Positions 14,259 to 40,178 of a stretch of 64,000 nt of DNA are shown one piece after another. A model generated the notes under the pieces. That model was not told the origin of the DNA. It saw nothing but the letters and a program-made list of their open reading frames with translations, and made no database searches. Position 1 is the stretch's first letter, and every line of letters starts with the position of its first letter. The translations under genes and the position numbers were made by a program. The stretch is from Candidatus Doudnabacteria bacterium (GTDB taxonomy: Bacteria; Patescibacteriota; Doudnabacteria; UBA920): positions 202,853 to 266,852 of the forward strand of contig CAWINB010000004.1 of the NCBI GenBank assembly GCA_963837465.1. Reading direction: 5' to 3'.

Positions 14259-14261
14259 AAA

Positions 14262-14551: not shown

Positions 14552-14577
14552 TTAATCAAAAAAGAAAGGATAAATTT

Positions 14578-15443: not shown

Positions 15444-15450
15444 GGTATTT

Positions 15451-17938: not shown

Positions 17939-18018
17939 CCTTCTCGATTCTAAATCCTTGCTTAATGCAAGGTAGCCGCGGCATCCTCAATGGATAGTCC
18001 GCGGCTTTCTTTTGGTTT

Positions 18019-18243: not shown

Positions 18244-18363
18244 CCTTTAAGAATAAAGGGCAGATGATTATAAGGCGACGGACTATGAGTATCAGTAAAC
18301 CTGTGGTATAATGCGGGAAAAGGTGTATAATATAGGAAACATTAACTTTTAGAAACAAAAACA

Positions 18364-20755: not shown

Positions 20756-20848
20756 AAATTTGTTGACGGCTTGTCAAAAATGTGCTATAATTAAAGCAAT
20801 AATTCCTTTAAAATAAAAATTATTAATTCGATAATTAAAAAACCACAT

Positions 20849-23206: not shown

Positions 23207-23289
23207 TTCGACTCAGAAAAAATTGCAAAACCGCCATGTCTAGAGCTGGCGGTTTTTGCTTTGTAAATAGGAAAAGCGGCCGCGAAACT

Positions 23290-24033
23290 TCATTGCGGCC
23301 GCTTGTAGATAGTCGGAGAACGAGGAGTTTTACCGCCAGCTTTCAGATAGTTTAGGAATTCAGCGCACCCTCTCTTGTAATCGCATCTCTGGAGGATATC
23401 GTCGGCTTCTAAAAAATCTGTATCAAGTGGCTGGCCGATGGCGCGAAGTTGCTTGACTGCAAGCTGGTCGACTTTTATCCATACCCTTTCTTCTTCCAGG
23501 AGCTGCTGTTCATCGGTCGCGTTGCCTTTGGTGTAGTAGGATTTGTCGCGCTCGAAGTGTGTAGCCTCATGCACCAGTCCCAAAGCAAAATTATTTTTAC
23601 TTAACTGGTTGAAGCCAACCGGCACTTTCTGTTGAACGCGCACGATCATAAGTAGCCGTGGCGTATAAATGAAAATGCAGGGCGTGTAGGGTGGTTTGTC
23701 ATCGCTGTTCTTAGACACGTAGGCAGAGCTCATCATCGTAGCCTTGTTTTCCAGCCCGGCCTTGATTTTGTAGTATTGCCCGATGGCTTCGATCTTGAGG
23801 CGACCAGCAGAATACTCATCCCAAATCCATTGAATTTTTTCTTTCATGAATGGTGTCATGTAGGAGTTCGCCGGATCGGATGCCCCCGTCGCCGTTAATA
23901 GGTCATTGACTAACTGCTTGGCTTCGTCTGCCGAAAACTGGAAAGTCTGCTCTGTAGGCTGTATTGGGGTTATAACCGTTGGTTCCTTTCTGGACTGTTT
24001 CGTTGGAAACAGAGCAAAAATTACCACGACCAT
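23290..24033 (-). CDS. Membrane-anchored putative zinc metallopeptidase (HExxH)
   Basis: The N-terminal TM segment is followed by a conserved VHEATHFE (HExxH) motif. The region is moderately GC-rich. Confidence 0.45.
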   Translation of the reverse strand: MVVVIFALFPTKQSRKEPTVITPIQPTEQTFQFSADEAKQLVNDLLTATGASDPANSYMTPFMKEKIQWIWDEYSAGRLKIEAIGQYYKIKAGLENKATMMSSAYVSKNSDDKPPYTPCIFIYTPRLLMIVRVQQKVPVGFNQLSKNNFALGLVHEATHFERDKSYYTKGNATDEQQLLEEERVWIKVDQLAVKQLRAIGQPLDTDFLEADDILQRCDYKRGCAEFLNYLKAGGKTPRSPTIYKRPQ

Positions 24034-24562
24034 AGCTGCAACGATTGCCAGTAGAGCGATCCAGTTCGGTTGCTTTTTACGGACTGCTCGACTCGTTTTC
24101 TTTGACTCAATTTTCTATCCTCCAATTGGTGTTGTAACAGACAATTATATAGGATTTTTGACACTTTGACAATGGTCGTATTTTTCGATTTGACACCTTC
24201 CTAACCACAAGGTAACATACGCCAAATTGCATAGATTATAACCCTTGTTAAGGCTTGCAGGCACAAGGATTGCAATATTGGCATTTTTCGTTATAATACG
24301 GAAAATCCACTTTTTGAAACCTATCAGCCTGCAAGCTGGGGAGTAAAAGAGTGGATTTTTCGTTTTGGAACTCCGCACACCGAACTCACTACAAGTGGCT
24401 TAAAAGTGATTTTGTTTACCTCGGGTCGTGAGGTGGAAAATTTTATTTTCTTTTAAGCCTGTGGATAAACATGTGCTAATTTTAGGAACCTCTAATAAAT
24501 TTAAAGTCTTGTTTCTTAGTGAACGTTCGTTCATAATAGATTCATGACTCCTCAAAAAACCG

Positions 24563-25723
24563 ATGAGCCAAATTCAAATAGACAGTTTACGAAAAACCCC
24601 ATCAAGGTCTTTCGTTGCAGAAACTTTTGGAAGGATATTTTCTATGTCCAAGCCTACAAAAACTTTCAGCGAGGCCGGCCAAGAGTTTCTCTATTGGTGC
24701 CAGTATGGCAGATCAGAAGCCGTTGCAAAAACCACGCTCAAAACCTATACCAGAACATTGGAACTTATTGCCAAGCATTTTGGAGATGTCCCGGTTAGTG
24801 AGGTTACGCTGGAGCATGTCCTGAATTTGAAAAAGGATTTTTTGGATCGGGGTGCCAAGCCTGGCTATTTGAATAAGGTGGTAATGCTAGTTCGGTCGGT
24901 TATAAAACACGCAGCAGAAAAAATGCATTTACCAGTTATGTCTTGGCGCGAGATTGAGCTGCCAAGAAAGCCCCGGCCGGAAGTCAGGTATTTGAGTCAG
25001 AGCGAGCTTGACCGGGCAATGTCTTTCATTCATACCGACACACTGCAAGGTATCCGCTTTAAAGCCGTCTTTACAGCCATGCTGGACACGGGCATGCGTA
25101 TTTCCGAGGTTTTGTCGCTAAACAGGGATTCTATTGAATGGGGAGATAAGTCAGCATATATTATTGGTAAGGGCAGTAAAAAACGAAAAGTCTTGTTTCA
25201 GGACTGGTCATTGTGGTGGATCCAACAATATTTATCTAACCGCAAAGACAAACATGAGGCCATGTTCGTTTCTCACCAGAGCGGATATCCCATAGCGCGG
25301 CTACAGACCAATGATGTGCAGCGGGTATTCCGGAGAATTGCCCTCAAGGCAGGTTTGGAAAAATTCACACCACACACGGCCAGAAAAACAGCGGGATCAA
25401 CCATGTGGAATAATGGGGCAGATATTCAGGACGTGCAGGTATTTTTAGGTCATGAAAAGTTGCAAACTACTCAAATTTACGTCGGTAAAAATTATGACCG
25501 TGTCCGGGAGGTGCAAAGCCGAACCTTACAGTATCGGGCTGTGGACGTGGGTGTTACAGCAGTCATCAGGTGGGCAAAGGGCTACGACAAATGCAGCAAT
25601 TGCGGCAAAACGGACAAGCCTCATGGCGCAAAAGGTTATTGCATTAATTGCTACATGAATTTGAAGAACGCGCGAATACGGGCAGAACAGGCACAAACCG
25701 TCGAGAAACCGGTGCCAATTTAG
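24563..25723 (+). CDS. Tyrosine site-specific integrase (phage integrase family) with a C-terminal Cys4 zinc ribbon
   Basis: An N-terminal SAM-like core-binding region is followed by a catalytic domain with R...HTARKTAGSTMWNNGADIQDVQVFLGHEKLQTTQIY, matching the integrase H-x-x-R...Y signature. The C-terminus has CSNCGK...CINCY. The start may be the internal Met at about 24644. Confidence 0.85.
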   Translation: MSQIQIDSLRKTPSRSFVAETFGRIFSMSKPTKTFSEAGQEFLYWCQYGRSEAVAKTTLKTYTRTLELIAKHFGDVPVSEVTLEHVLNLKKDFLDRGAKPGYLNKVVMLVRSVIKHAAEKMHLPVMSWREIELPRKPRPEVRYLSQSELDRAMSFIHTDTLQGIRFKAVFTAMLDTGMRISEVLSLNRDSIEWGDKSAYIIGKGSKKRKVLFQDWSLWWIQQYLSNRKDKHEAMFVSHQSGYPIARLQTNDVQRVFRRIALKAGLEKFTPHTARKTAGSTMWNNGADIQDVQVFLGHEKLQTTQIYVGKNYDRVREVQSRTLQYRAVDVGVTAVIRWAKGYDKCSNCGKTDKPHGAKGYCINCYMNLKNARIRAEQAQTVEKPVPI

Positions 25724-25760
25724 ACTTGCATTTGTATACCGGTTATGTTAATATGGATGT

Positions 25761-25949
25761 ATGCATGAACAAAAGCTTAGTCGGAACATGGCAGTGGTGA
25801 TTTTAAGGAAGGCTAACCCAAAAGTCTTTACTTTTGACGAATTAGCCGATTTATTTGAGGTTCAGAAGCATGTTGTGCATAAAGTGTTTCTGCGAGATAA
25901 GGATAAATATAACTTGCCAAACGAAAGTCTAGTAAATTCAAGGGTTTGA
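25761..25949 (+). CDS. Small hypothetical protein downstream of the integrase
   Basis: 62 aa ORF between the integrase gene and the att-like core and tRNA-Lys. Confidence 0.25.
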   Translation: MHEQKLSRNMAVVILRKANPKVFTFDELADLFEVQKHVVHKVFLRDKDKYNLPNESLVNSRV

Positions 25950-26148
25950 TAGGATTAGCAAATCTTGTATACCCATTTTGGAAAAATTTGGCAAAGTTCT
26001 TTAAAAAATTGGTGTTTATATAAAAGTAGTAAAGAAAATTTTGGCTCAATGATTGATGCTTTATCACACTGGGCTGAGTTCGACCCCATTAGACGACAAA
26101 GGCTCCTAATTTCCCAGTCTGTATACCTTTGAAAAATTTAATACTCGT

Positions 26149-26224
26149 GGGTCGGTAGCTCAGCTGGTAGAGCAGCGGCCTTTTAAGCCGTTTGTCGAGG
26201 GTTCGACCCCCTCCCGACCCACCA
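26149..26224 (+). tRNA. tRNA-Lys(TTT), copy 2 (different acceptor and T stems from copy 1)
   Basis: Cloverleaf with acceptor GGGTCGG/CCGACCC and T-arm GAGGG-TTCGACC-CCCTC. Positions 8-47 are identical to copy 1. Confidence 0.9.
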
Positions 26225-27665
26225 TATTGAACTTCTTGGAATCTGCAACGAGTTTAAACTCATTTTTCCAATTGGGGATTAGTGTTTCTCCATTCCAAGA
26301 AAAGTTTTCCAACATAGACTTCACCAAACGCCTTTTCCCTTCGGGAGAGGCTTTTTGGTAAGAGAAATAAGGATTTCTTAAAAGTTTTCCAAGTAGCACC
26401 ATTTGGTCTAAAATCTTTTCATCCGCAGTATCCAAAGCAACCCGCCTTTGCCTAAGCACTAATGATTGGTTAACAAACCTGGCCTTTAGCGAATTGTAAG
26501 TGTCTTCCTCAATTTTACCCTCAATTAGCCTCATTGCCAAGGCCTCAGTTTGTTGCCTTATTCTGACCTCGTCCATCTGAATTTTCTTTAGTTCGTCATC
26601 CTTGCAAAAGTTCATATCAGTCCGAAAACTCTTGACGGCTTCAATATATTTCTGCCCCTCTTGCTCGCTGAACTGGATTTCTTTTAACCGTTTTAAAAAC
26701 TGTTTTTCAATGACGGCTTCCCCAATATTTTTAAAGCCGCAGTTTTTATTTCGGCAATTGTAATATTTATATTTTTTCTTTGCCGAAACACAGCGTAGTT
26801 TACCTTTGCACAAAGGGCAGAATACTAAATTTTGAAAAACATAAATAAAAGTTTTGCTATGCTTGTAGCCTCTGCCACTTAAAACTACCTGCACTTGATC
26901 GTAAAGGTCTTTGGTGACAATGGGGGTATGCTTGCCCTCAATCGGTTCCTTGCGATAGCGAAAGAAGCCGTAGTAAAACGGATTGCGTAATATGTGAGCC
27001 AGTTTATTTTTACTTAACTTACAGCCTTTTTTAGTAAGTAAGCCCATTTCAGTTAAAATATCGGTTAACTGCACTAGCGAATAATTGCCTGTAGCGTACA
27101 TTTCAAAAGCTCTTTTTATAAACGGTGCTTTCACTGGATCTGGTTCTTTAAAAGCTTTCTTGCCCATGTTGACATAGCCTATCGGAGCAGGTAATGGAGT
27201 CATCCCTAAATTTAATAATCCGCTTATGCCTTTGTTGACTTCCTGCTTTAGGTTGGCAACGTAAGACTTGGCAAAACCAAATTGGATAAATAATATGCCC
27301 TTGTTGGGAGTTGAACTGGAAATTCCGTCAGCTACAAAATGCAGATCAAAACCAGCGTTCATCATATCTTCTAAAATTATCATATCCTGAAAATTCCTGG
27401 AGGCTCGGTCAACTTTATTAAAAATAATGCCTTTAACTTTATAATGTTTAGCTAATGCTATCATTTCGTGAAATTCATGGCGATCAATTTTTGAAGCACT
27501 TTCAATCTCCCTGAAAACTTTGAAAATTGGCAGTGGCGGATGATGATGTTCCGCATAAAATTGGTTTTGCCGTGTTTGTTCGTCTAAAGACGCTCCATCC
27601 GATTGCATTTGGCTGGAGACCCTGACATAGGAAATATAGGAATTTTGGTAGTCAATTGCTTTCAT
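26160..27665 (-). CDS. Large serine recombinase (resolvase catalytic domain, recombinase domain, zinc ribbon and coiled coil)
   Basis: Catalytic domain YISYVRVSSQMQ...KVDRASRN with the Ser nucleophile. The recombinase domain and zinc ribbon CPLCKGKLRCV...YYNCRNKNCGF follow, then a coiled coil. The last ~16 codons are encoded antisense to tRNA-Lys copy 2. Confidence 0.85.
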   Translation of the reverse strand: MKAIDYQNSYISYVRVSSQMQSDGASLDEQTRQNQFYAEHHHPPLPIFKVFREIESASKIDRHEFHEMIALAKHYKVKGIIFNKVDRASRNFQDMIILEDMMNAGFDLHFVADGISSSTPNKGILFIQFGFAKSYVANLKQEVNKGISGLLNLGMTPLPAPIGYVNMGKKAFKEPDPVKAPFIKRAFEMYATGNYSLVQLTDILTEMGLLTKKGCKLSKNKLAHILRNPFYYGFFRYRKEPIEGKHTPIVTKDLYDQVQVVLSGRGYKHSKTFIYVFQNLVFCPLCKGKLRCVSAKKKYKYYNCRNKNCGFKNIGEAVIEKQFLKRLKEIQFSEQEGQKYIEAVKSFRTDMNFCKDDELKKIQMDEVRIRQQTEALAMRLIEGKIEEDTYNSLKARFVNQSLVLRQRRVALDTADEKILDQMVLLGKLLRNPYFSYQKASPEGKRRLVKSMLENFSWNGETLIPNWKNEFKLVADSKKFNMVGREGVEPSTNGLKGRCSTS

Positions 27666-28429
27666 AATATCTTTGAATAGGCTCCGCTGTAAGTTTGATT
27701 TTTATAGGTTATAAATCCCTTATACATCTTATTGCTTAAAATTTTGCGTATTGATGAGGGATGCCAAAGACTGACTCCTCGCTTGGTCGGTATGTTATTT
27801 TGGTTAAGATGCTTGGCAATACGGGCAACGCTCATTTTTTGATAGCGCTTGAGGTAATAAATTTTTTTGACTACTTCCGCTTCTTTTTTATTTATAGTAA
27901 GTTGTCCGTCTTTGCTGTTATAGCCATAAATAAGCCCTCCGTGCCAGTTGCCTTTGGCAACGGATTGGTCACGGCCTGTCTTCATGCGAATGGTGATAAG
28001 ACTTCTTTCAAACTCGGAAAAAATTCCGATCATTTGCCTAAAGGCTTTGCGGAACGGATCATTATCCGATAAATTAGGCTCTAAAACTGAAACAATATTC
28101 TTTTTTAATTCGGCAAATTTTTTAATTAAAAGTTCCTGTAAAACCAAATCCCTGGCAAGCCTTGTCAGGCTGTAAATTAGTACTGTATCCACATCATCAT
28201 TGGTTTCCAAAAACTTCATTAGTTTTAGTAAGGCTGGTCTGTCTTGCAGTTCTTTGCTTCCGCTAACTCCGTCATCCTTGAAGCAGTCAATAATTTCCAT
28301 ATCATGTTTTTTTGCATAATCAGTCAAGCTTTTGACTTGTAATTCTATATTGTCATTTTCGGCCTGTATCGCTGTGGAAACTCGGCAGTAAATTATGCAA
28401 CGGGTCATTTTGACCTCCTTAAAGCCCAA
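27662..28429 (-). CDS. Short serine recombinase (resolvase catalytic domain and recombinase domain, no zinc ribbon or coiled coil)
   Basis: Catalytic motif CIIYCRVSTAIQ...SLTRLARD is followed by a partial recombinase domain. It overlaps the downstream LSR by ATGA, indicating translational coupling. Confidence 0.75.
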   Translation of the reverse strand: MGFKEVKMTRCIIYCRVSTAIQAENDNIELQVKSLTDYAKKHDMEIIDCFKDDGVSGSKELQDRPALLKLMKFLETNDDVDTVLIYSLTRLARDLVLQELLIKKFAELKKNIVSVLEPNLSDNDPFRKAFRQMIGIFSEFERSLITIRMKTGRDQSVAKGNWHGGLIYGYNSKDGQLTINKKEAEVVKKIYYLKRYQKMSVARIAKHLNQNNIPTKRGVSLWHPSSIRKILSNKMYKGFITYKNQTYSGAYSKIL

Positions 28430-28599
28430 CTCACTTTCTTAAATTCATCTCTGGCAAACTTTATGCCTTTTAGGAGAGAAAAGGCTTGTCCAAAGTCTCC
28501 GCTCATAATGCACTGTAAGCGTTCCCTCTCCATAGCTTGGATTTTCTGGCCTGCTAACCGCAACCAGTTAATCCGATCTTCTCTTGAAGAGAATTTCAT
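28405..28599 (-). CDS. Small basic hypothetical protein upstream of the recombinase pair
   Basis: 64 aa ORF overlapping the start of the recombinase gene. It could be an RDF or regulator, but nothing supports that directly. Confidence 0.25.
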   Translation of the reverse strand: MKFSSREDRINWLRLAGQKIQAMERERLQCIMSGDFGQAFSLLKGIKFARDEFKKVSWALRRSK

Positions 28600-28909
28600 A
28601 TTATCTCCAACTAAAAAACCACCAGAGATTGAACCGTCGATTGTTGCTACACAACAACAGTTTTCTCTGATGGCTTATTAGTAATATACCAATAAAAATA
28701 AGACCGTTCAATACCTATTGTTGTGTAGCAATTTAATTTTATAACATTTCTATGAGGGTGTACAATCGTTTATTAACAATTGCGATAAAGTATCGCCCTG
28801 TAATAACAATATGCAAAAACTTGGATACTTTTATATTGGTTTTTAGTCATATAATATATAGACTGAGGACAGATGGTGTCTTTACCGTCCATGCTGTCCA
28901 AAGACATCT

Positions 28910-30520
28910 TTAGAACTTCACACCTTCTACGCTTTCCTGTCCAGCATCGTCGTCTGCGGTAACGTCTTGTTCGTCCCCGGCTTTGTTTTGATTGGCTAGG
29001 ACAGCAGAGACGGCATTGACGGCATTTTCGTCCGTCTTTATTAAGCTAATGGTCCTTCCACCTGATTTGTCTTTTTCTACCTTAATCCCAATTGCAGCAA
29101 GGTTTGTGACGACCATTTCAAGCCTACGCCAGAGCCAGTTTGAGGTTTGCGGGAAATATTTGTTTTTGGTGTTAAGGCCAAGGCGTTCGGCTTCCGCAGT
29201 AAGTTCCCGTAATAAATCAGTAGGACTCGCTGTGTATTCCACCTGATCCCGCATGATCTCAATTACCACCTGGGCCACTAGCGAATCTTCAATGGCTTGG
29301 TAATTTTGCATAGCTAGGTTGGCTTTTAAGGCATTTACGAATTCCTCGTCCTTATGGCCTAAGGCGTTGCTAATAGCACAACCCCAGCGGACAAAATCAG
29401 CCATGCGCAAGTTCTCAATATCTTTGGGTAAAACTGTTTTCTCAAATAACTCCAGTGATCTCTTGACTGCGTCAAATAGTGCGCCGACCAAATGAGGTTT
29501 TGCCTTTGTAAACTTTGCCAACAGTTGGGCTTCGTCTTGATAGACTTCAGGCCTTTCAAGTTCAATTATTAATGAACGTTCCAACAGGTTAGGCTTGCTC
29601 ACAACGAGGTTAATTCCATTCATCGCCACAAGTCTACGGAAGCTGTAAATAATGTCGTCATCATCGCTGAAAAGTTCGCGTTTTGACATCGCCTCACCCG
29701 TAACTACGCGGCATAACATATCGGAAAAATTTGACTGTATGATAGACAAATTATCCAGTGGTAAAAGGTAGTGATGACTGGCAAGTTGAACGAATTCTTT
29801 GCTATCTCCAGTCGCTGTTAGCGTTTCCATTATTGATGGGTCAATCAACCTGCGGAGCAGTTTGCATAATGTAGTTTTACGGGAACCCTGCGCTCCGTGG
29901 ATTACCAAGACTGGATGAGGAAAATCAGGCACTATTCCAGCAACCATCCAAACCAGTAGTAATAATTTTTGTCCAGAATCTTTTGGCGTAGGGATAAAAT
30001 TATAGACTTCTTCTAAACTGCCTCCCGATATCGGCTCATCCTGGGCTCTCTGGTGTGAAAACCGATAAAACAATATCGGGGACGGATCAATAATTTTCCA
30101 GCCCTCTTTGCCGATTTCTACTGCTCTTCCGTCGCCAAGGTCGTAATAGATTTTATCCTTTAAAGTCGCAATCCGCACTTGCAACTTTATTTCCTCTCCA
30201 TCATGGGTAGCATGACCCTCAAGCGTCCTTACTGCGGTCTCAATCACGGCCGGGGAAACTGCTTTTTTTAATTCTTTCCAACCCAGGAATGACAGCCATT
30301 TTTTGAATTCTTTTGACTTAAGTTTTAAAACTTTTTTGCCATTGCCATCTATGGCCAAAAGTCCATTTTTAAACTGGTCAAAAAATAATTTAGATTTGCT
30401 GTTTAAAACCAAATTCACCAATTTTTTTGCCTGACTTTCATCCTCATCTTTTTCGCCCTCAATATTTCTTTCAATCTGTTGCAAAAGTTCTTCATCTTTT
30501 GTGTCTTTATTATCTTGCAT
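28910..30520 (-). CDS. P-loop NTPase of the primase-associated helicase type (VirE/D5/P4-like)
   Basis: Walker A VIHGAQGSRKTT and Walker B-like LLPLDNL. The acidic N- and C-termini and the 536 aa size are typical of mobile-element primase-helicases. Confidence 0.55.
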   Translation of the reverse strand: MQDNKDTKDEELLQQIERNIEGEKDEDESQAKKLVNLVLNSKSKLFFDQFKNGLLAIDGNGKKVLKLKSKEFKKWLSFLGWKELKKAVSPAVIETAVRTLEGHATHDGEEIKLQVRIATLKDKIYYDLGDGRAVEIGKEGWKIIDPSPILFYRFSHQRAQDEPISGGSLEEVYNFIPTPKDSGQKLLLLVWMVAGIVPDFPHPVLVIHGAQGSRKTTLCKLLRRLIDPSIMETLTATGDSKEFVQLASHHYLLPLDNLSIIQSNFSDMLCRVVTGEAMSKRELFSDDDDIIYSFRRLVAMNGINLVVSKPNLLERSLIIELERPEVYQDEAQLLAKFTKAKPHLVGALFDAVKRSLELFEKTVLPKDIENLRMADFVRWGCAISNALGHKDEEFVNALKANLAMQNYQAIEDSLVAQVVIEIMRDQVEYTASPTDLLRELTAEAERLGLNTKNKYFPQTSNWLWRRLEMVVTNLAAIGIKVEKDKSGGRTISLIKTDENAVNAVSAVLANQNKAGDEQDVTADDDAGQESVEGVKF

Positions 30521-30676
30521 ATTTTTGCTCCTCCCTAATTAATTTTGCCTTTTTTAATTTAGCTAACTTAAGACCCTTTCTAACTGCCCGACTTAAATTT
30601 TGACGATACGTAAGCCTCATTGCTTCTAAAAAATGCTGGGCTATGCGTCGTTTAAAACTTTTATTACCTTCAATTC

Positions 30677-31372
30677 TCATATATTTGAATCTCCTGTCAG
30701 TTGCCCGATTGCTTCTTTAAAAGCGCAACCTGTTTGCAACATAATTAGTTTTATTACGTCTCCCTGCATCCCGCAACCGAAACACTTAAAAGTATTAGTG
30801 CTGGTATAAATGGTAAACGAAGGTGTTTTTTCTTGATGTAGCATGCAAAGACCTACTTTGGTTTTGCCGCTCCGCCTCAACTTTCCTCGGTAAAAATTTT
30901 CTATAGGGACTTGTTTAGCATAATTTATCTGCTCTTGGGTTAGCCGTCCCTTTAAGACCTTGCCTCTTTTAATCCACAATAACCCCATGACTCGGTAAAT
31001 CTGTTTTTTCGCTTCAATTATTTTTTGGACTTCGTACGACTTCAGCCCTTGCCGCAGAAACCAAAGGTCGTTGGAATTTTTGGCAATAAGTTTAAAGGTT
31101 TTGAGTTTTTTACGAATTTCCGTAGATATAATTTGCTTGACGTTTTCCCAATCCTTGATTTTTTGTACCAACAAAGCTTCGTCTACTTCAGGGAAAATTT
31201 TTAATAGTTCTATTTCCGTGTATCTTACTTGGTGAAAGCGGTAATATTCTTCTTCAAGTTTCAAAAGATAAAGTAGTTGCCTATGCTCGGCCTCATCTTT
31301 TAAATCTGCTTCATTTAATATTTTCATCTTTAGCTGATTTTTTACCTTTCTGCTTAGCGACCAGTTCTTCAT
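30677..31372 (-). CDS. DNA primase zinc-finger (zf-CHC2) domain protein
   Basis: The C-terminal CMLHQEKTPSFTIY...FKCFGCGMQGDVIKL matches the DnaG/P4 primase CHC2 finger (C..H..PS......F.CFGCG..GD.I.). Confidence 0.6.
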   Translation of the reverse strand: MKNWSLSRKVKNQLKMKILNEADLKDEAEHRQLLYLLKLEEEYYRFHQVRYTEIELLKIFPEVDEALLVQKIKDWENVKQIISTEIRKKLKTFKLIAKNSNDLWFLRQGLKSYEVQKIIEAKKQIYRVMGLLWIKRGKVLKGRLTQEQINYAKQVPIENFYRGKLRRSGKTKVGLCMLHQEKTPSFTIYTSTNTFKCFGCGMQGDVIKLIMLQTGCAFKEAIGQLTGDSNI

Positions 31373-32590: not shown

Positions 32591-32901
32591 AATGTCTATA
32601 CAGGGAACGTTTTTTATCGTTTTGTTCTATTATAGCCCTGCTTAATTAAGCTGGCAATTATTCACTTTAAGCTGATTTTGGTATATAATAGTAATGGAAA
32701 ATTTAACACCTAAACCGTAATTTTTACGGCATGGTGTGACAAAAAACGATTGAAGTTCAAGGGTGGTCATCCACCTTGCTTTACTTCAATCGTCATAGCC
32801 GAAAGGTTATGGGCAAATCCGAAAGGACGAGCCGAGCAAGCTCTGGATGGCCTTTTTGTTTGGCTAACCAACTTGCTCCTTAACAATTAAAACAATAAAA
32901 A

Positions 32902-33705
32902 ATGGATAAAAACATTACAAATGCTGTCTCCACAGAATCCAAAACTATTAATAAAGATGAAATGAAAGAGCTGCAAAAAAATAAAAAAATTGGTTTCATC
33001 GTTGGAATTATAGGGTTAGTTCTTTTGCCTGTTTATGGCCTTGGCATACTTCTGTTGCTACTAGCAGTATGGTTTTGGAATGGAAAGAAAATTCCAAAAA
33101 TTGTTAAATCTGTTACTGATTTTTCAAAGGATTCAAAACAAGAAAAAATTTTTTGGGATTTGATGAATGGAAAATATGGCCATACCGATCTAGGCGTAGG
33201 AGATATTATAATGTTGTATATTATCAGCTTAGTAAGAGAACTTCGTGTTGGAGATTTTCCCATCAAAAGTGCAACTGACCAAAATAGCTTTAATAAAAAT
33301 ATAATACAGGAAAGTAACGGGTCATTTAAAAATATTCAAATATTATGTGACGCTATGGAAGAAAAAAAGAAAATCAGTAAAGAACTCTTTAACAAGATTA
33401 CTTTTATTTCTACTGATGCTGAGGCACTTAAAAAATTTGAAGATTTTAAAAATGATATGATGAATCGTAATATTGAAGGAATTGACAAAGTTTTATCGTC
33501 TATTATTGATGCGGCAAAAGATCCAAAAAACGAAACTACGGTCTTGGAGGCCATGAATAAGTTTGGGGAGGACGGTATTTACGACCCACTTTATAAAAAA
33601 ATCCAAGAAAAAGAAACGGCAAAAAAATTAAAAGAAACTCTTAACGATTGGGAATACTTAAATATGCTAAGGTGGTGTATAGCAAGTTTTAAAGCAAGAA
33701 GCTAA
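32902..33705 (+). CDS. Membrane-anchored hypothetical protein
   Basis: 267 aa ORF with one N-terminal TM hairpin. A terminator hairpin follows at 33735..33770 (AAAAGCTCCCC...GGGGAGCTTTTTTG). Confidence 0.4.
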   Translation: MDKNITNAVSTESKTINKDEMKELQKNKKIGFIVGIIGLVLLPVYGLGILLLLLAVWFWNGKKIPKIVKSVTDFSKDSKQEKIFWDLMNGKYGHTDLGVGDIIMLYIISLVRELRVGDFPIKSATDQNSFNKNIIQESNGSFKNIQILCDAMEEKKKISKELFNKITFISTDAEALKKFEDFKNDMMNRNIEGIDKVLSSIIDAAKDPKNETTVLEAMNKFGEDGIYDPLYKKIQEKETAKKLKETLNDWEYLNMLRWCIASFKARS

Positions 33706-33846
33706 AAAATGAAAAACTTAAAAAAATAATTATTTTAAAAGCTCCCTTGTAATGGGGAGCTTTTTTGTATGAGGTTTTATACGGCCAACCTCGGATAAGT
33801 GTTCTGCCGGTCAATCTTCTTTCACAAAACTACACATCTGTTAGAG

Positions 33847-34239
33847 TTAGCCGATAGCCTCTTGTAATTTTCTTTCGTATTCCAAATCTACTTCTCCGTC
33901 AATATCTGGTTGTAATTCTTCTATCTGTTGTTCAGACCGTTCGGCTATAATTCCCTTATTTCTAGATCGGATTTCACGAAGTATGCCAGCCAATGGACCT
34001 TCCGTAGGAGTTGAAATTTCCATGCTGTCCTTAACCTTACCTAATGACCTGTCAAAAACTTCTTTTAATGCAGAAACCTCACCAGATTTAGCTTTCTCAA
34101 TCAGAGCTTCAACTAGCTCTTTTTTATTTGCTATAACCTGCTCTATCATATACTGCCGAAAGGTTATGGCTTCCAGCGTATGGCTAGCTAAACTGCCTTT
34201 TGGCCTGCCTGAGTTTTTGCGTTTTCCGCCGTGATTCAT
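33847..34239 (-). CDS. Hypothetical protein with a basic GGKRKNSGRPKG N-terminus
   Basis: 130 aa ORF. The GRPKG-type motif is reminiscent of phage small terminase or AT-hook-like DNA binders, but the assignment is weak. Confidence 0.3.
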   Translation of the reverse strand: MNHGGKRKNSGRPKGSLASHTLEAITFRQYMIEQVIANKKELVEALIEKAKSGEVSALKEVFDRSLGKVKDSMEISTPTEGPLAGILREIRSRNKGIIAERSEQQIEELQPDIDGEVDLEYERKLQEAIG

Positions 34240-34375
34240 AAAACTTGGTTAAATAATCAAATAACCAAGTTTATTATAATTGGTCTGCCAGTCCTGTAAA
34301 CGGATTAATTTTACTCTTTATAATAAGCCAATTTAGGTATATTATATATAAGTACACTTATTTTTATACTATAAA

Positions 34376-35314
34376 ATGCCTACTAAATTTAAACCAGGGG
34401 AGATAATTGATAAAGTATATATGGTTGAAGAAGCCTTTACAGGAGGTTCATTTGGGCATGCTTATAAAATAAAAAATGGTACAGGCTATGAAGTTATAAA
34501 AATCTGTGCAGAACCTGCTGGTACAACCGAAGCACTAAGATTTGTGCAAGAAAATGATTTTTTGTACAAACTATTTCCAAACCCCGCTATTATTGAGCCA
34601 CTAAGTAAAATCAGCCCATTAAATCCCGACAGTATTTATTATAGGATGAAGTTTGCTGATTATAATCTAGAAACTTATCTAGACGATTTTGAATCAAGCC
34701 TTGACCTAAATAGTAAATTGTCTATATTCAAAGGAATATGCGAGGGCTTAAAGCATGCACATGCAAATAAAATTTTGCATAGAGATTTGCATTGGGGGAA
34801 TATTTTAATTGACATGCTAAATAACATGCCAGTCCCTAAACTGACCGATTTTGGAAGATCTAAAGATCTAAAAGCTTTAATAGCATTATCATCAAATCCT
34901 GGAATTTGGGGAGAATTTGTTTGTCCACCAGAAATAAGGTTTAGGATTTGGGATAAACTTCCGACAAATTATATGGAGGGTGATATATACTCTTTGGGGA
35001 TTATATTTTATTATATATTAGGGGCTATGCCGAACTTCCCATTTATATTTCAAAATGAAATTATAAATTTTTTAAGAAATAAAAAGGTGACTCTTAAGAC
35101 AGTTAATGATGAAAGTATCCGTCATGGTTTGTATAAAGAATGGCTAGGAACCCTCACAGACCAAAAGATTAATAGTCATCTCAGCATTTTAATAAATGGA
35201 AGTGCGGTAATAAATGACAAAATTAATACCATTTTAAAAAAACTTAGCCATCCTAATTATGAGTTGCGGTATCGTTCGGTAGAGGATGTGTTAAAAGAAA
35301 TAGCAACACTATAA
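34376..35314 (+). CDS. Ser/Thr protein kinase-like protein
   Basis: Glycine loop GGSFGHAY, a VIKI lysine, catalytic loop HRDLHWGNILI and DFG motif LTDFGRS. Confidence 0.7.
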   Translation: MPTKFKPGEIIDKVYMVEEAFTGGSFGHAYKIKNGTGYEVIKICAEPAGTTEALRFVQENDFLYKLFPNPAIIEPLSKISPLNPDSIYYRMKFADYNLETYLDDFESSLDLNSKLSIFKGICEGLKHAHANKILHRDLHWGNILIDMLNNMPVPKLTDFGRSKDLKALIALSSNPGIWGEFVCPPEIRFRIWDKLPTNYMEGDIYSLGIIFYYILGAMPNFPFIFQNEIINFLRNKKVTLKTVNDESIRHGLYKEWLGTLTDQKINSHLSILINGSAVINDKINTILKKLSHPNYELRYRSVEDVLKEIATL

Positions 35315-37086
35315 TGGAAGACTTATTAATAATTCGTAATGCCACCAAAGCACAGCCAGCAGAAATTATTGCTGACCCTAATTTGGATTTGCCAGATTTT
35401 TATTTAGACCAAAAAAATCCGGAAAAAAATAAGTATTATGAAAAAGAAAAGTCCGAAGACTATTCCTTTTTAAGTAAAAATTTAAATAAAGAATTCCTAA
35501 AAAATCAATACAAAATAGCAAAATCAAATTTTGCAAGAAAAAAAAGCACCAGGAATGCTTACGCATTAGGTGAAATATTTTTATTAAAAAAAATCTTTTC
35601 CACTGCTAAAAATTATTACAAAATTAGCATAGAACTTGATAAGTCTTTTCTGCCTGCTTATGAAAAATTAGTATTGGTGTCCATAATTCTAAACGAAACA
35701 GATAGGGCAAATTACTATTATAAATTGCTTTTAGAAGTTTCCAATCATAGACCAGATCTAGTTCATAGTTACGCGCTTTTTAGAGTTGCAAGCTCTGCTG
35801 GAGATAAAACGACTTTGGATGAGACGCTCAAAGACTTAGATCAAATTTTAGCTCTGCAACCATTGGATATTGCCGCAATAAATAGTTATGGATTTATTTT
35901 ACTAAATTTTTACCAAAAACTTGATGAGGCACAACAGTATTTTGAGAAGGCTTTAGAAATAGATTCTACCTTTGTTCACTCAATGAATAATTTAGCGGTT
36001 TGTTATATTCATAAAAATGACTTAACAAAGGCTATATCACTACTTGAAAAAGCAATAAAAATCCATCCAAACTATGTGATGGCATATCAAAATTTAGCTG
36101 GCATATATTTTAGAACAAATAAATTAGCAGAAGTGTCCAAGATACTTAAGCAAGCAGTAAAAAATAATATTACCTTATCTGACGAAACCAAACATCTGTC
36201 TGGTTGGCTTTTAATTCTTACTCATAAATATGAGGAGGCAAAAAATTGGTACCTGAAAGAAATAATGGGAGAGCCAGGAAATAATCTTTTATATAACAAT
36301 TTAGGGTACGCATACCAACAACTCAAAGATTTAAACAAAGCAGAAGAATACTATAAACAGGCTGTTGATATAGCGAAAAGAAGAAAGGCAAAAAATTTAT
36401 TTGTTGATGACAGATCTCTTTTTGCCTTTTATAATCTTGGCCGACTTTTTCAATTTTTTGGTAAAGTTGACGAACTCCATAAAATTTCAAATGATATTCT
36501 TAATTGGAAGCCCGAAGATCCTTTTGGCCAATATTTGTATGGGAGCGCTTTAGTCATAGATGGTAAGCATGATGCCGCTAAAAAACAATTATTAAAGGTA
36601 GTTGAAAAATATCCGAAACTTCCAGAAACCTATCAAGACCTTTCTTACATATATGACTCTATAGATAAAGATTATAAAGCTTCTATTGATTTGTTGAATG
36701 ATGCCATAAAAATTGGAATTAACTTACCTATAATTTATAATAACTTGGCAATAGCCTATATAAATTTAGGAGACTTTAAAAATGCAGAGGACACGCTTAA
36801 TAAAATAACGGATGATTGTGAGCCTACAATAATTGCAACCCGGGGACTTTTAGCTTTTAGAAAAAATGATTCGGAGAAAGGTAATAAATATTACAAAAAA
36901 GCTGTCGATGAAATTAAACCGCAATTAAAAAATTTGGCGAATCAAATTTGGTTATATGAGCAAGCATTTTATTTCTTTCGTACTGGAAAGTTAGAAGAAG
37001 CAAAGATAAAACTCAAAGAATCAAAGAAAATGGGTAAATCATATATGACTAAGGATATAACCGAATTAGAAAATAAACTGACCTAA
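35314..37086 (+). CDS. TPR-repeat protein
   Basis: 590 aa ORF with multiple 34-aa TPR-like repeats (A..YY..AL..DP....A.NNLG..Y). Its start overlaps the kinase stop (ATAATGG). Confidence 0.7.
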   Translation: MEDLLIIRNATKAQPAEIIADPNLDLPDFYLDQKNPEKNKYYEKEKSEDYSFLSKNLNKEFLKNQYKIAKSNFARKKSTRNAYALGEIFLLKKIFSTAKNYYKISIELDKSFLPAYEKLVLVSIILNETDRANYYYKLLLEVSNHRPDLVHSYALFRVASSAGDKTTLDETLKDLDQILALQPLDIAAINSYGFILLNFYQKLDEAQQYFEKALEIDSTFVHSMNNLAVCYIHKNDLTKAISLLEKAIKIHPNYVMAYQNLAGIYFRTNKLAEVSKILKQAVKNNITLSDETKHLSGWLLILTHKYEEAKNWYLKEIMGEPGNNLLYNNLGYAYQQLKDLNKAEEYYKQAVDIAKRRKAKNLFVDDRSLFAFYNLGRLFQFFGKVDELHKISNDILNWKPEDPFGQYLYGSALVIDGKHDAAKKQLLKVVEKYPKLPETYQDLSYIYDSIDKDYKASIDLLNDAIKIGINLPIIYNNLAIAYINLGDFKNAEDTLNKITDDCEPTIIATRGLLAFRKNDSEKGNKYYKKAVDEIKPQLKNLANQIWLYEQAFYFFRTGKLEEAKIKLKESKKMGKSYMTKDITELENKLT

Positions 37087-37126
37087 ATCATATATTTTTG
37101 TTTAAATTAAAATATTTATTAACCGT

Positions 37127-37657
37127 ATGAAAATTTCCTCAATGATACTATTTCCACATAATCCTCATTCTAGTAAGCTAGATAGATTTATCAAAGTGAT
37201 ACTGTTAGTAGGGGTTTTAACCTTTTTTATCTTAATATATGAAAATATCATCGTACCTGCCCAGCAACGCCAGCCTTATTATGCCTTTTCTTTTCAAAAT
37301 AACTATGATACATTTCCGGAAAAAGAAATTTATTGTAATTTAAAGCCTCTATGCATGAACCCAGATCAAATTGTCATTTCTTATGACACTTATGCTGATA
37401 ATACAGCCGAAAAAAATTATGTATCACAGGCAATGATACAAAATGTTGATAACCAACAAATATTGAACCACTTAGAAAATGATGGGGCAATTAACGTAGC
37501 CCAACTAAAAGCTAAAGACATTAATGATTACCAAGACTACGTCAATCAAGCGATTACCCGAACTATTTTATATACAATTATTGCCTATTTTTTTGCTACG
37601 CAAATACTTTATAGAATTTTTTTATATATTGTTTATGGTAAGACGAAACAAGTTTAA
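37127..37657 (+). CDS. Membrane hypothetical protein (N- and C-terminal TM segments)
   Basis: 176 aa ORF with no recognised motif. Confidence 0.35.
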   Translation: MKISSMILFPHNPHSSKLDRFIKVILLVGVLTFFILIYENIIVPAQQRQPYYAFSFQNNYDTFPEKEIYCNLKPLCMNPDQIVISYDTYADNTAEKNYVSQAMIQNVDNQQILNHLENDGAINVAQLKAKDINDYQDYVNQAITRTILYTIIAYFFATQILYRIFLYIVYGKTKQV

Positions 37658-37666
37658 TTTAAAAAA

Positions 37667-37981
37667 ATGCGCAACATTAATAAGTCAGTTGCTATAATTA
37701 TACCTAAAAAGCCCTTTGCAAACTGGGCTAATCATCTGCCAGGTGTTGACACGGAACTTAGCTTTAACGAGCTTAAAAAATATGCTAAAGCTATTTTGCT
37801 AGAAAAATTTACAACTTCTAAAGAAGCCAAGGAAGTATTCAGTCAAACATGGAATGAGGTTTTTGAAGAGTATCTAACAAGCTGGTCTAACGACGTGGAT
37901 TATTGGCCAACAGGTAGAACCAAAGAATTATTTTACAAATGGTTTGATGTAGAATTTTATTCTAACGTTTTAGATCTATAG
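37667..37981 (+). CDS. Small hypothetical protein
   Basis: 104 aa ORF with no recognised motif. Confidence 0.3.
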   Translation: MRNINKSVAIIIPKKPFANWANHLPGVDTELSFNELKKYAKAILLEKFTTSKEAKEVFSQTWNEVFEEYLTSWSNDVDYWPTGRTKELFYKWFDVEFYSNVLDL

Positions 37982-38002
37982 AAAGATAAAAAATAAAAAT
38001 TT

Positions 38003-38578
38003 ATGGATTATAAGATATTCGTTAGTATAATTTCAGTCATCCTTGTTTTTGTAGGATACGGCCCGTACATTCGGGATATTTTTAAGCGAAAGACAACCCC
38101 ACATACTTTTACTTTTTTGGTTTGGGGTATTTCAAGTTCAATTACTTGGGCTTTACAAGTGATGGGGGGGGCTGGAGTGGGTGCGTGGATAACATTTGCG
38201 GTTTCTGCCGTGTGTATATTTATTTTTTTCCTGTGTCTAAAATATGGTGAAAAAAGTATCGCTATTTCAGACGTTGTATTTTTAATACTTGCCCTGTTTT
38301 CGCTTTTTCTTTGGCTTGTGGTAAAACAGCCAGTCTTGTCAGTAATACTTGTGGTTTTAACGGATATATTAGGTTTTGGGCCAACTATAAGAAAGTCTTG
38401 GAATAAACCTCATTCCGAAACATTATTTACTTGGTGGGTCGCGGCATTTAGGCACGCATTAGGTATTATTGCCTTACAAAAGTTTAATATTTTTACACTT
38501 CTTTATCCAGTAGCCTGGACGATAGCCAACTTAATTTTTTGTCTAATTTTGCTTATAAGACGTAAGCAAATTAAGTAA
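38003..38578 (+). CDS. Polytopic membrane protein (about 6 TM)
   Basis: 191 aa ORF made up almost entirely of hydrophobic helices. Confidence 0.45.
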   Translation: MDYKIFVSIISVILVFVGYGPYIRDIFKRKTTPHTFTFLVWGISSSITWALQVMGGAGVGAWITFAVSAVCIFIFFLCLKYGEKSIAISDVVFLILALFSLFLWLVVKQPVLSVILVVLTDILGFGPTIRKSWNKPHSETLFTWWVAAFRHALGIIALQKFNIFTLLYPVAWTIANLIFCLILLIRRKQIK

Positions 38579-38590
38579 ATTTGTCCTTTT

Positions 38591-38980
38591 ATGGAACGTG
38601 CAGAAACATTAGGCCTTTTGGCCTTTAAAAACTGGGTAGGAGATCGGGGCGAAATCCTTAATACTTCTAGGGATGGAGTTGGGTATGATTGCAAAGTAAA
38701 ATGGAAGGACACGGGCTTGGCCGAAACATACGAAATTAAAGGAACAGCAAAAGTATTGAAAATTCCCGATATGAGCGTCGTTGAATTTGATGAAAGCCAT
38801 AGATTAAAGGCCGATTTTCTTTTTGTGGCCGGAAACGTATTTGAAACTGGTAAAGAAGTGCTGTTTAAAATTCCAAGAGAAGCCTTAACTGAAGAAAATC
38901 TAAAACTGAAACAAACCTATCATATAAGGCTTTTCCAAAACCAAAAGAAAATGGGGAAATACCGCCTTACCAGTAATTAA
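38591..38980 (+). CDS. Stand-alone DUF3883 (NOV C-terminal, restriction-endonuclease-like) domain protein
   Basis: G.RGE...GVGYDCKV...ETYEIKGT matches the remembered DUF3883 signature G..GE...GyDi...yIEVKtT. Confidence 0.5.
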   Translation: MERAETLGLLAFKNWVGDRGEILNTSRDGVGYDCKVKWKDTGLAETYEIKGTAKVLKIPDMSVVEFDESHRLKADFLFVAGNVFETGKEVLFKIPREALTEENLKLKQTYHIRLFQNQKKMGKYRLTSN

Positions 38981-39260
38981 ATTGCTCTGATAAGGCAAAC
39001 CCGTCTGAAATAAAAAATTGACCTCAGATGAGGTCTTTGTGTAGAATGTATATAATATCGGCTTGGCTATTTAGATCATTCCTGACGTTAGCAGTGAACT
39101 CTGGGATAACCCTAATAAGGCCTGATAGATGTCCTTAACCAAACGAGCAAATAGTTTTCCAATTGGTTCTATATGCTCCACCAAAAAAAGCGCCGAGACT
39201 TTTTGGGCGCTTGTTAGTAAAAATAAAAAGTGGTATAATTAAGATAATTAAACTTATCTT

Positions 39261-39875
39261 ATGAGAAAAACATTATTACTTGCAGTTCCTTTAATTGCCT
39301 TGATGGCAGCTGGTTGTTCGTCAAATTCCAACAACAGCCCCCAGAGCAGCGCTTCGCAGTCACCAATTGCAAATTCTCCTAGCGTCCAACAACCATCGAC
39401 ATTGACGGCACCGTCAGCTGCCGAATCAGATTTTAAACAAGCCAGCGACCTAGCAGCACAGCAATGCAGTAATTTACAGCTGGTCGAATATTTCAAAAAT
39501 TTTAAACCAGCAGATAAGGGTAATACTGCCAGTGGTTATAAATTTATTTGCGACGATGGAAAATATGTCTCGGTTGATATAATGAGCACCGGAAACATGC
39601 AAACGAGAAAATTAACTAATCTTTACTATAAACCCATTACATTGGCAGATTGGAAAGTTAATTTAGATTCGGCAAAAAACATAGCTTTACAGAATGGTGG
39701 GAACGATTTTATTAGCAAAAATAGTGGAGCATTTTTGAATGGTGAAATTTTAACCAGCAGAACCGATGAAGGCTTTAAGTGGATTATAGATTTTGAGTCG
39801 CAAAATTATAATTCGGAATTGCAGATATTTATCGATCCGACGACTGGCGCAATACTAGGTCAGAAAACTTACTAA
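39261..39875 (+). CDS. Lipoprotein
   Basis: Signal peptide with a lipobox (LIALMAAGC|SSNSNNS). 204 aa. Confidence 0.6.
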   Translation: MRKTLLLAVPLIALMAAGCSSNSNNSPQSSASQSPIANSPSVQQPSTLTAPSAAESDFKQASDLAAQQCSNLQLVEYFKNFKPADKGNTASGYKFICDDGKYVSVDIMSTGNMQTRKLTNLYYKPITLADWKVNLDSAKNIALQNGGNDFISKNSGAFLNGEILTSRTDEGFKWIIDFESQNYNSELQIFIDPTTGAILGQKTY

Positions 39876-39983
39876 ATCGTATACCTTTAAAATTTCGGTC
39901 TGGGCAGGTTCTTTAAAAAATCGCACCAAACTTAAGCAAAGTTAAAATAATTCTCGCTTACAAATTGGTGGTTTGGCACATGT

Positions 39984-40012
39984 GCTGAGTTCGATCCCCG
40001 GCCGTCCCACCA
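39984..40012 (+). repeat. Partial tRNA-Lys 3' end (att-site remnant or direct repeat of tRNA-Lys copy 1)
   Basis: GCTGAGTTCGATCCCCGGCCGTCCCACCA. The 3' 24 nt match copy 1 with one mismatch. The 5' GCTGAGTTCGA part matches the attP-like core at 26073. Confidence 0.7.
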
Positions 40013-40044
40013 TAGTGTCCTTTTTCGCTTCTGCGACTAACCTG

Positions 40045-40152
40045 AATTCGTTTTTCCAGTTGACCTGTATAACCTTTTCGCTATTCCAGGTTAGGTTTTC
40101 AACCATAGATTTCACCAAACGCCTTTTCCCTTCGGGAGAGGCGTTTTGGTAT
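40045..40152 (+). repeat. Diverged ~105-bp direct repeat of 26255..26360 (LSR C-terminal coding remnant)
   Basis: CATAGATTTCACCAAACGCCTTTTCCCTTCGGGAGAGGCGTTTTGG aligns with CATAGACTTCACCAAACGCCTTTTCCCTTCGGGAGAGGCTTTTTGG. In both places the sequence lies directly 3' of a tRNA-Lys sequence. Confidence 0.7.
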
Positions 40153-40178
40153 GCCGGGTGCGGATTCTTCAGCCGTAT

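Follow-up and report, generated by a model that had tools for sequence, protein, structure and literature searches.

We analysed a 64,000-nucleotide stretch (hereafter the window) of contig CAWINB010000004.1 from a Candidatus Doudnabacteria bacterium, in which a short serine recombinase gene overlaps the gene of a large serine recombinase (LSR, here LSR501) within an element of roughly 13.8 kb. The element spans about 26.1-40.0 kb of the window, lies at a tRNA-Lys gene and coincides with a drop in GC content across roughly 26-40 kb. We tentatively read it, at a little short of an even chance, as a replicative integrative element resembling the staphylococcal cassette chromosome (SCC), in which the LSR would be the integrase and the short recombinase a conserved accessory protein that probably works with it. 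The coordinates of its features are compiled in Table 1, and labels such as L246 denote individual related loci.

Two tandem recombinase open reading frames (ORFs) on the minus strand, overlapping by ATGA, had been recognised in the first-pass annotation of this region, and both the frames and the overlap (...ATA TTA TGA / ATG AAA) were confirmed in the sequence. LSR501 has a Resolvase catalytic domain with the serine nucleophile (Pfam, 1.5e-18), a complete Recombinase domain (1.2e-18, profile positions 1-102 of 102) and a zinc ribbon (Zn_ribbon_recom, 1.7e-08, 277-328), and it matches the PHROG 95 integrase family at 6e-73. The YVRVSS motif of its catalytic domain is kept in the partner LSRs of related loci, and residues about 330-440 look helical by eye. 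With a catalytic Resolvase domain followed by a Recombinase domain and a zinc ribbon, the 501-aa protein is predicted to be a full LSR, as had been proposed.

The short recombinase matches Resolvase over its full length (2.9e-32), while its Recombinase match covers only profile positions 2-64 of 102. No Zn_ribbon_recom match was obtained with Pfam, the protein ending at the position of LSR residue 250, and the HTH_7-type helix-turn-helix (HTH) domain of small resolvases and invertases was likewise not matched in Pfam. The protein consists of a catalytic domain, an E-helix and a truncated LSR-type recombinase domain, with neither zinc ribbon nor coiled coil. The lack of a zinc ribbon had been described correctly; the length of 255 aa did not hold, as it results from an upstream in-frame TTG. 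The ATG at 28408 is preceded 6 nt upstream by an AAGGAGG ribosome-binding site and overlaps the stop codon of the preceding gene, p64, by ATGA, and in the alignment all homologues begin at its position, so that the true start is almost certainly this ATG, giving 248 aa. The genes of p64, the short recombinase and LSR501 are therefore chained by successive ATGA overlaps. The two recombinases are collinear at 19% identity, and the short one stops, opposite LSR residue 250, right after the beta-hairpin of the recombinase domain. Judged by their sequences, they are old paralogues and not the products of a recent duplication.

A search of 5.8 billion proteins returned more than 80 protein clusters 43-61% identical to the short recombinase, nearly all of 244-251 aa and all with both the Resolvase and the Recombinase domain. 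In an alignment of 38 family members, the end point is common to the family and residues Y7, R9, S11, R83 and R86 are invariant. The AlphaFold2 (AF2) model of the protein has a mean predicted local distance difference test (pLDDT) score of 81.6, with a compact C-terminal domain above 90. Its top structural matches are LSRs (SPbeta SprA and Bxb1), and residues 160-248 superpose on the recombinase domain of the A118/LI integrase with a root-mean-square deviation of 2.4 A over 112 columns; the kinship with LSRs is also seen by sequence profile. These results indicate a conserved full-length family with intact predicted catalytic residues and not a broken gene, which answers the question, raised in the first-pass annotation, of whether the short form might be a truncated remnant. 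The short recombinase thus represents a third, "recombinase-domain-only" form that is neither a small resolvase or invertase nor an LSR. Among IMG/VR viral contigs no close relative was found (best identity 42%), and a metagenome scan yielded mostly stand-alone short relatives. Our literature searches, whose coverage was incomplete, did not turn up any account of a short enzyme of this form being coupled to an LSR.

The association of the two genes is strongly conserved on one side. An LSR gene lies directly downstream in 22 of the 23 loci in which the short protein has 47% or higher identity to that of the window, and the lone exception has only 544 bp of downstream sequence. In the intact pairs measured, the LSR starts between -38 and +69 nt from the stop codon of the short gene, and the junction TATTATGAA is identical in 4 loci. 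The LSRs that follow the short recombinase in related loci are 30-57% identical to LSR501, and the divergences of the two proteins are correlated (r = 0.76). These paired loci come mostly from metagenome-assembled genomes of Patescibacteria. Loci with a short protein of 40-47% identity (from Nitrospirota, Melainabacteria, Atribacterota and others) never have an LSR directly downstream; the stand-alone ones among them are the sole recombinase in small islands, and the neighbours of such distant relatives include ParA (L008), a divergently oriented LSR, restriction-modification genes and, upstream, rplL. The pairing is therefore one-sided: within the clade the short enzyme is not seen without an LSR, while the LSR can do without the short enzyme.

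Two loci show other arrangements. In L014 (119-2574), a short recombinase of the stand-alone type is divergent from a 532-aa LSR, beside a Dcm-type methylase, and this constitutes a different association of a short and a large enzyme. In L004, 224 bp of the LSR 3' end occur in two exact copies (11941-12164 and 15765-15988) on either side of a 3.6-kb segment encoding a sigma factor, a GIY-YIG protein and a methyltransferase; upstream of this segment is an intact pair that does not lie at a tRNA.

Upstream of the recombination genes lies a replication module. The 536-aa protein gave no family match in Pfam, PHROG or NCBIfam, and a comparison with PDB by sequence gave the P-loop only. Its AF2 model (pLDDT 84.5, predicted TM-score 0.81) matches the folds of D5-type superfamily 3 (SF3) helicases: the SaPI5 primase-helicase (7ola), SCCmec Cch (5dgk), NrS-1, the PrimPol of African swine fever virus, PriRep1 and vaccinia D5. 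The highest TM-scores among these are those of SaPI5 Rep (TMq 0.50, TMt 0.60). Based on this model, the protein is a D5-like SF3 helicase, in agreement with the D5-like P-loop protein first suggested here. Homologues with 40-45% identity form the C-terminal parts of 700-900-aa proteins that also contain Prim-Pol/PriCT_1, Toprim, RepB-primase or CHC2 domains. The neighbouring 231-aa protein had been described as a zf-CHC2 primase-finger protein; the finger is indeed present, and no primase catalytic domain was recognised with Pfam, PHROG or NCBIfam. Between the two, counterparts of the 56-aa protein, of 42-55 aa, occur at the same position in most related loci with the helicase module. The three iteron-like repeats that follow the helicase gene are, by analogy with the origin of SCC Cch2 (PMC7581432), a candidate replication origin. 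Their motif is also found in L002, L164 and L248, which have the same helicase variant, and a different repeat lies beside the other helicase variant (L162, L249 and L251).

A relaxase, for which a search had been proposed, was not found in Pfam scans of the ORFs of the element, nor was a type IV secretion system. PHROG gave no match to packaging or structural (capsid) genes in the 10 proteins scanned, which cover only part of the cargo.

The recombination operon begins with p64, which is 52-61% identical in related elements, including those without the short recombinase. It has no family match in Pfam or PHROG, and we consider it a candidate directionality or regulatory factor. In front of it, a sigma-70-like promoter (TTGAAC-17-TATATT, 28683-28711) directed at the operon lies between the arms of a 17-bp inverted repeat. 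The arms co-vary among loci, and the leader is seen in L002, L162, L164, L248, L249 and L251. The 3' arm of the repeat belongs to the terminator-like hairpin of the leader; the pairing of the arms and that of the hairpin interleave and are therefore mutually exclusive. Read-through from the helicase operon could act as an anti-terminator, or the 17-bp repeats could be operators. Because the repeat is also found in L251, which has no short recombinase, it is not the private site of that enzyme. In the tRNA-His group of loci, a different palindrome of 15-21 bp lies about 110 bp upstream.

The last 65 nt of the LSR501 gene are antisense to tRNA-Lys copy 2, a relationship that was not part of the first-pass annotation. 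The 3' ends of related LSR genes are likewise antisense to tRNA-Lys, tRNA-Glu, tRNA-His and tRNA-Ala genes and, in L001, to the tmRNA gene. The hairpin and T-run that lie on the tRNA strand 105 nt beyond tRNA-Lys copy 2 form the core of a repeat shared with 40076-40151. All 13 related loci checked have an equivalent hairpin and T-run within the sequence encoding the LSR C terminus. It follows the tRNA at 101-128 nt in L248 and the Lys/Glu/Ala loci and at 3-6 nt in the His and tmRNA loci, with stem sequences that differ from locus to locus. We read it as a tRNA terminator supplied by the element, which would explain why short relics of LSR C-terminal regions persist beside tRNAs after an element has decayed. 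One such remnant adjoins the right end of the element, ending 19 nt before the stop codon of pyrD, and is read as a relic of an earlier occupant of the site. Locus L164 is syntenic with the left flank in the window (a pilin, a 470-520-aa protein, an AbrB/MazE-like protein and a YknX-type adaptor), and in it the pair lies directly at the pilin-proximal tRNA-Lys, whose counterpart in the window is tRNA-Lys copy 1.

The position of the crossover admits several candidates. Upstream of tRNA-Lys copy 2, an att-like site joins a foreign end-arm to the sequence preceding the tRNA. It has an imperfect dyad symmetry about a T-loop-like GTTCGA, as judged by eye, and the repeat tool gave only a different, 9-nt inverted repeat. 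A simple crossover in the T-loop of a tRNA of the type of tRNA-Lys copy 1 (14183-14258) was tried as an explanation and fails to account for the stems of tRNA-Lys copy 2, which are self-consistent and different. The crossover may instead have taken place at the tRNA 3' end; the element may carry its own tRNA, with the phage-type attachment site (attP) about 60 nt upstream; or the whole may be a composite of two related elements. The far ends are known for the window and L013 only; in nine related elements no displaced tRNA 3' fragment was found at the far end within the 1.3-10 kb available upstream per locus. No terminal overlaps that would indicate circularity were found in the whole-contig loci examined. 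The 13.8-kb Logan contig L081 ends in a 32-nt exact repeat common to 26.3 kb and 40.1 kb and is uninformative on this point.

Two related loci carry further tRNA-associated structures. L013 (680-755, 1849-1915 and 11793-11859) has two far-end copies of an LSR C-terminal relic together with the last ~11 nt of tRNA-His. The distance between the copies is 1.17 kb, and similar end arms come after both, which suggests a mini-element in tandem with a full one. In L248 (12190-12270, minus strand), the LSR 3' end overlaps a tRNA-like sequence with intact acceptor stem, T-arm and CCA and a 13-nt loop in the anticodon region, which was called by neither ARAGORN nor Rfam.

Table 1. Features of the serine recombinase element and its junctions (positions in the window).
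Feature	Position	Strand	Description
att-like site	26057..26104	+	upstream of tRNA-Lys copy 2; left arm homologous to the right-end arm of the element
tRNA-Lys(UUU) copy 2	26149..26224	+	left junction of the element
Large serine recombinase LSR501	26160..27665	-	501 aa; Resolvase, Recombinase and Zn-ribbon domains, long helical C-terminal region
Terminator-like hairpin and T-run	26330..26351	+	105 nt after tRNA-Lys copy 2; antisense within the LSR501 C-terminal coding region
Short serine recombinase	27662..28408	-	248 aa from ATG; 255 aa from TTG at 28429
p64	28405..28599	-	64 aa; first gene of the recombinase operon; stop overlaps the short-recombinase ATG (ATGA)
Terminator-like hairpin	28619..28674	-	GCCATCAGAGA...TCTCTGGTGG, then T6; operon leader, just before the p64 ribosome-binding site
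17-bp inverted repeat	28644..28731	-	TTGCTACACAACAATAG / CTGTTGTTGTGTAGCAA; flanks the promoter
Iteron-like repeats	28873..28899	-	three in tandem, 9-10 bp (GGACAGCAT GGACGGTAAA GACACCAT); begin 10 nt after the helicase stop codon
Predicted D5-like SF3 helicase	28910..30520	-	536 aa; Walker A GAQGSRKTT
56-aa protein	30510..30680	-	between zinc-finger protein and helicase, overlapping both
CHC2 zinc-finger protein	30677..31372	-	231 aa; C-terminal DnaG-type CHC2 finger only, residues 164-230, 2e-19
Cargo	32902..39875	+	Ser/Thr kinase, TPR protein, membrane proteins, lipoprotein
Right end of the element	39850..40012	+	conserved non-coding arm of ~150 bp with T-arm-like end, joined to tRNA-Lys 3' fragment 39981-40012
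Remnant of the C-terminal coding region of another LSR	40013..40160	+	148 nt, includes hairpin; 87% identical to 26285-26360

Among known systems, the closest design is that of the SCC ccr locus, in which a CCPol-MP-Cch2 or LP1413-Cch operon and a helicase-adjacent origin are followed by CcrAB or CcrC (PMC7581432). The comparison with SCC and CcrAB made in the first-pass annotation is thereby borne out beyond the recombinases, given that the ccrAB or ccrC genes of SCC are likewise directly preceded by genes for a primase-like protein, a small protein and a self-loading helicase, and by an origin. The order is the same here: a primase-type protein, a small protein, a helicase, origin-like repeats and then one or two serine recombinases on the same strand. 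The Cch structure ranks among the best fold matches to the 536-aa protein, SCC and the present family both have two-recombinase and one-recombinase versions, and each targets a conserved housekeeping gene at its 3' end. There are also differences. CcrA is a full LSR, whereas the upstream partner here lacks the zinc ribbon and coiled coil, and CcrA and CcrB are two full-length LSRs, both required, with adjacent genes on the same strand, whereas the present genes also overlap and one of them encodes no full LSR. The SCC target is rlmH, whereas here it is a tRNA or tmRNA gene and the hosts are Patescibacteria; and the primase-like protein of SCC is an A-family polymerase, whereas here it is a CHC2 zinc-finger protein. 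In NCBIfam, the short protein scores 101 bits for CcrB and 55 bits for CcrA and LSR501 scores 81 bits for CcrB, against cut-offs of 900 bits (CcrB) and 700 bits (CcrA), and neither recombinase belongs to CcrA or CcrB by sequence; overall, the CcrA/B/C scores of 55-101 bits fall far short of cut-offs of 700-900 bits.

Sets of serine recombinases acting at one locus had been thought unusual outside SCC, which proved too narrow, since streptococcal integrative and conjugative elements (ICEs) include serine-integrase triplets besides the single serine integrases specific for rumA (PMC4701971). The rumA ICEs have their att site within the serine integrase gene, at its 3' end, and integration swaps gene 3' ends (PMC4701971). 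Streptococcal ICEs have in common with the present element conserved multi-gene serine recombinase modules of fixed gene order and, if attP lies where we propose, an att site in the integrase-gene 3' end. They differ in being conjugative, in having protein-coding targets and in the domains of their recombinases, which have the Recombinase domain and mostly a zinc ribbon, and no comparable short member has been described in them as an obligate neighbour. Tycheposons and islands similar to phage-inducible chromosomal islands likewise combine a site-specific integrase beside a tRNA with a primase/helicase module and a small cargo, repeat part of the tRNA at their far end and form tandem arrays at a single tRNA, while their recombinases are tyrosine recombinases in 910 of 937 cases (10.1101/2020.12.28.424599). 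With its integrase at a tRNA, far-end tRNA repeat and replication module, the present element has the layout of a tRNA-targeting replicative island; tRNA and tmRNA targets are usually ascribed to tyrosine integrases (PMC4383910). Finally, the canonical serine integrases Bxb1, A118/LI, SPbeta SprA and TP901-1 are the best sequence and fold matches of both recombinases. They function as one LSR with a non-catalytic directionality factor, whereas here there is an additional short protein of the catalytic type.

Taken together, the helicase fold, the primase fusions of its homologues, the iteron-like repeats, the tRNA target and the far-end tRNA-fragment repeat agree with the replicative integrative element initially suspected. 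In the reading that we tentatively favour, it would be a non-conjugative, self-replicating integrative element at tRNA-Lys, built like the SCC ccr locus. Its replication operon would comprise the CHC2 zinc-finger protein, the 56-aa protein and the D5-like helicase, followed by the iteron-like repeats, and its recombination operon would comprise p64, the short recombinase and the LSR behind the conserved promoter and hairpin leader. The LSR would be the integrase proper, with attP at the 3' end of its own gene, overlapping the tRNA on the opposite strand; after integration, one end of the element would therefore have a complete tRNA and the element's own terminator, and the other end a 3' fragment of the tRNA. 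Like CcrA alongside CcrB, the short recombinase would join the LSR at the att sites, serving as an accessory subunit that alters how efficiently or in which direction recombination runs, and it would be dispensable in some lineages.

Several observations weigh against such joint action, which had been part of the original proposal. Homologous modules that lack the short recombinase contain LSRs with 43-46% identity to LSR501: L251/L252 have the helicase, p64 (61% identical) and an LSR overlapping tRNA-Glu, with the same leader upstream, and L253 has the helicase and an LSR. The LSR therefore does not need the partner. The first-pass annotation had named homologous elements with only one recombinase as evidence against its observation as a whole; this objection fails, both genes being present in 22 of 23 loci. 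L251/L252 and L253 have the LSR only. In a neighbour-joining tree without support values, these solo LSRs nest inside the paired clade, which suggests that the short gene was lost in their lineages. L246 couples a short recombinase of 60% identity to an LSR only 21% identical to LSR501, and in L246/L247 the pair stands amid quite different genes and without the helicase module. The pairing in L246 is difficult to square with co-evolution of a heteromer interface, and an interface between the short enzyme and the LSR, if any, is not lineage-specific. The mean pairwise identity is 0.59 for the short protein versus 0.40 for the matching N-terminal 262 residues of the LSRs, and this slower evolution suggests a constant DNA or protein target and not the variable tRNA site. 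The more remote relatives of the short enzyme operate by themselves, in one case next to ParA. At the integration site, the acceptor and T stems of tRNA-Lys copy 2 are internally compensated and do not match the displaced fragment, whose sequence is of copy-1 type. Recognition of the universal T-loop by the short recombinase was also considered as an explanation of its slow evolution and was not supported, as no T-loop-like motif occurs near the LSR ends in the paired loci L246, L004 and L009.

Part of this evidence suits an account in which the short recombinase is an independent resolvase acting at its own site on multimers of the excised circle or on tandem integrated copies, the LSR alone integrates and excises, and the linkage of the genes reflects co-expression. 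The element appears replicative, its LSR works without the short partner in sister elements, the short recombinase is indifferent to the adjacent LSR (L246) and evolves more slowly than it, a stand-alone relative adjoins ParA (L008), and tandem or composite arrangements occur at these sites. We regard this account as less likely than joint action, although it is the main rival. Against it, no res-like site specific to elements with the short recombinase was found, and sister elements without that enzyme are equally replicative and so would need a resolvase just as much. In addition, short proteins of at least 47% identity were always seen next to an LSR (the exception being the locus with 544 bp downstream), and L246/L247 have the pair without a helicase module. 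A bolder version of cooperation is that the short recombinase is a catalytic stand-in for the directionality factor: having a catalytic and an inner DNA-binding domain and no coiled coil, it could form mixed dimers with the LSR on attL/attR or occupied sites. The zinc ribbon and coiled coil of an LSR set site selection and directionality, and an intradimer coiled-coil lock normally blocks excision; mixed dimers would carry one coiled coil and so would escape the lock. We give this version only a small probability; if true, it would describe a two-recombinase system with rules of direction and site pairing unlike those of all characterised serine integrases. The att-like site, which joins the end-arm of a decayed relative to the sequence upstream of tRNA-Lys copy 2, is a junction that a canonical attP x attB reaction does not give, and stand-alone short relatives are the sole recombinase of small islands. 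Both points would fit a second integrase or excisase for secondary or occupied sites (attL/attR of resident relatives), which would also explain composite arrays, but the idea is purely inferential: the dyad symmetry of the site is weak, the repeat tool gave a different inverted repeat there and far ends are available for two elements only. We accordingly find it quite improbable.

The repeats that flank the promoter and co-vary between loci, together with a weak NCBIfam similarity of the short recombinase to Mpi-type invertases (3e-11), could point to a DNA invertase whose substrate is the promoter segment enclosed by the 17-bp inverted repeats. The orientation of the promoter is the same in 9 of 9 loci (the near-duplicates L250 and L252 included), and L251/L252 keep the same repeat and leader without the short recombinase; on these two grounds we rejected an invertible promoter. 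The 54-61-bp spacer is moreover very short for inversion, and the 3' arm lies within the terminator-like hairpin, which argues for an RNA or operator role instead, leaving the invertase with a very slight chance. Scarcely credible, finally, is the view that a paralogous LSR was recently truncated or became a pseudogene to give the short ORF, as the end of the Recombinase match at position 64 of 102 might suggest. It is ruled out by the uniform length and common end point of the family, the invariant catalytic residues and the 19% identity to LSR501; besides, the C-terminal domain is modelled confidently as a compact fold, and there is no room for a frameshifted remainder because LSR501 starts at the stop codon of the short ORF.

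If the SCC-like reading is right, an SCC-type design of helicase operon, origin and serine recombinases would extend from staphylococci to Patescibacteria. The LSRs described here use tRNA or tmRNA genes, with the integrase gene, the tRNA and the putative tRNA terminator on the same DNA. Serine integrases are valued for genome engineering in that a single protein and two short sites suffice; a natural partner without the zinc-ribbon and coiled-coil part, translationally coupled to a full integrase, would allow a test of how subunit composition affects site choice and direction. If the short enzyme is an ordinary resolvase, what remains is a well-described new element family.

The cargo of the element includes a Ser/Thr kinase gene followed, with a 1-nt overlap, by the gene of a tetratricopeptide repeat (TPR) protein (34376-37086, plus strand). 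These match PADLOC PDC-M71A (1.4e-13) and PDC-M71B (5e-21) and are a candidate PDC-M71A/B-like defence pair. A LOOT RNA (Rfam RF03000) scores above the gathering threshold at 32707-32833 (plus strand) and also in the related element L001 (6942-7052), which suggests that this motif travels with the element family.

A second island (14259-26087) occupies the interval between tRNA-Lys copies 1 and 2. It encodes a tyrosine integrase with a Cys-rich C-terminal extension (24563..25723), an HNH protein and large secreted or pilin-like proteins. The final 150 bp of this island and of the serine recombinase element are homologous. A relic of roughly 30 nt similar to an LSR tail follows tRNA-Lys copy 1. 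Farther to the right, between tRNA-Val and tRNA-Gly, a group I intron (RF00028, 71.9 bits) was found at 44336-44608 (plus strand); no tRNA called by ARAGORN encloses it. A third LSR gene (44658-46288, minus strand) is split by an apparent frameshift into a 177-aa Resolvase ORF and a 355-aa Recombinase/Zn-ribbon ORF. No short partner accompanies it, its identity to LSR501 is 27%, and its 3' end is again antisense to a tRNA, here tRNA-Gly (44703-44776, plus strand); an HTH gene and a DNA methyltransferase-like gene follow it in low-GC DNA.

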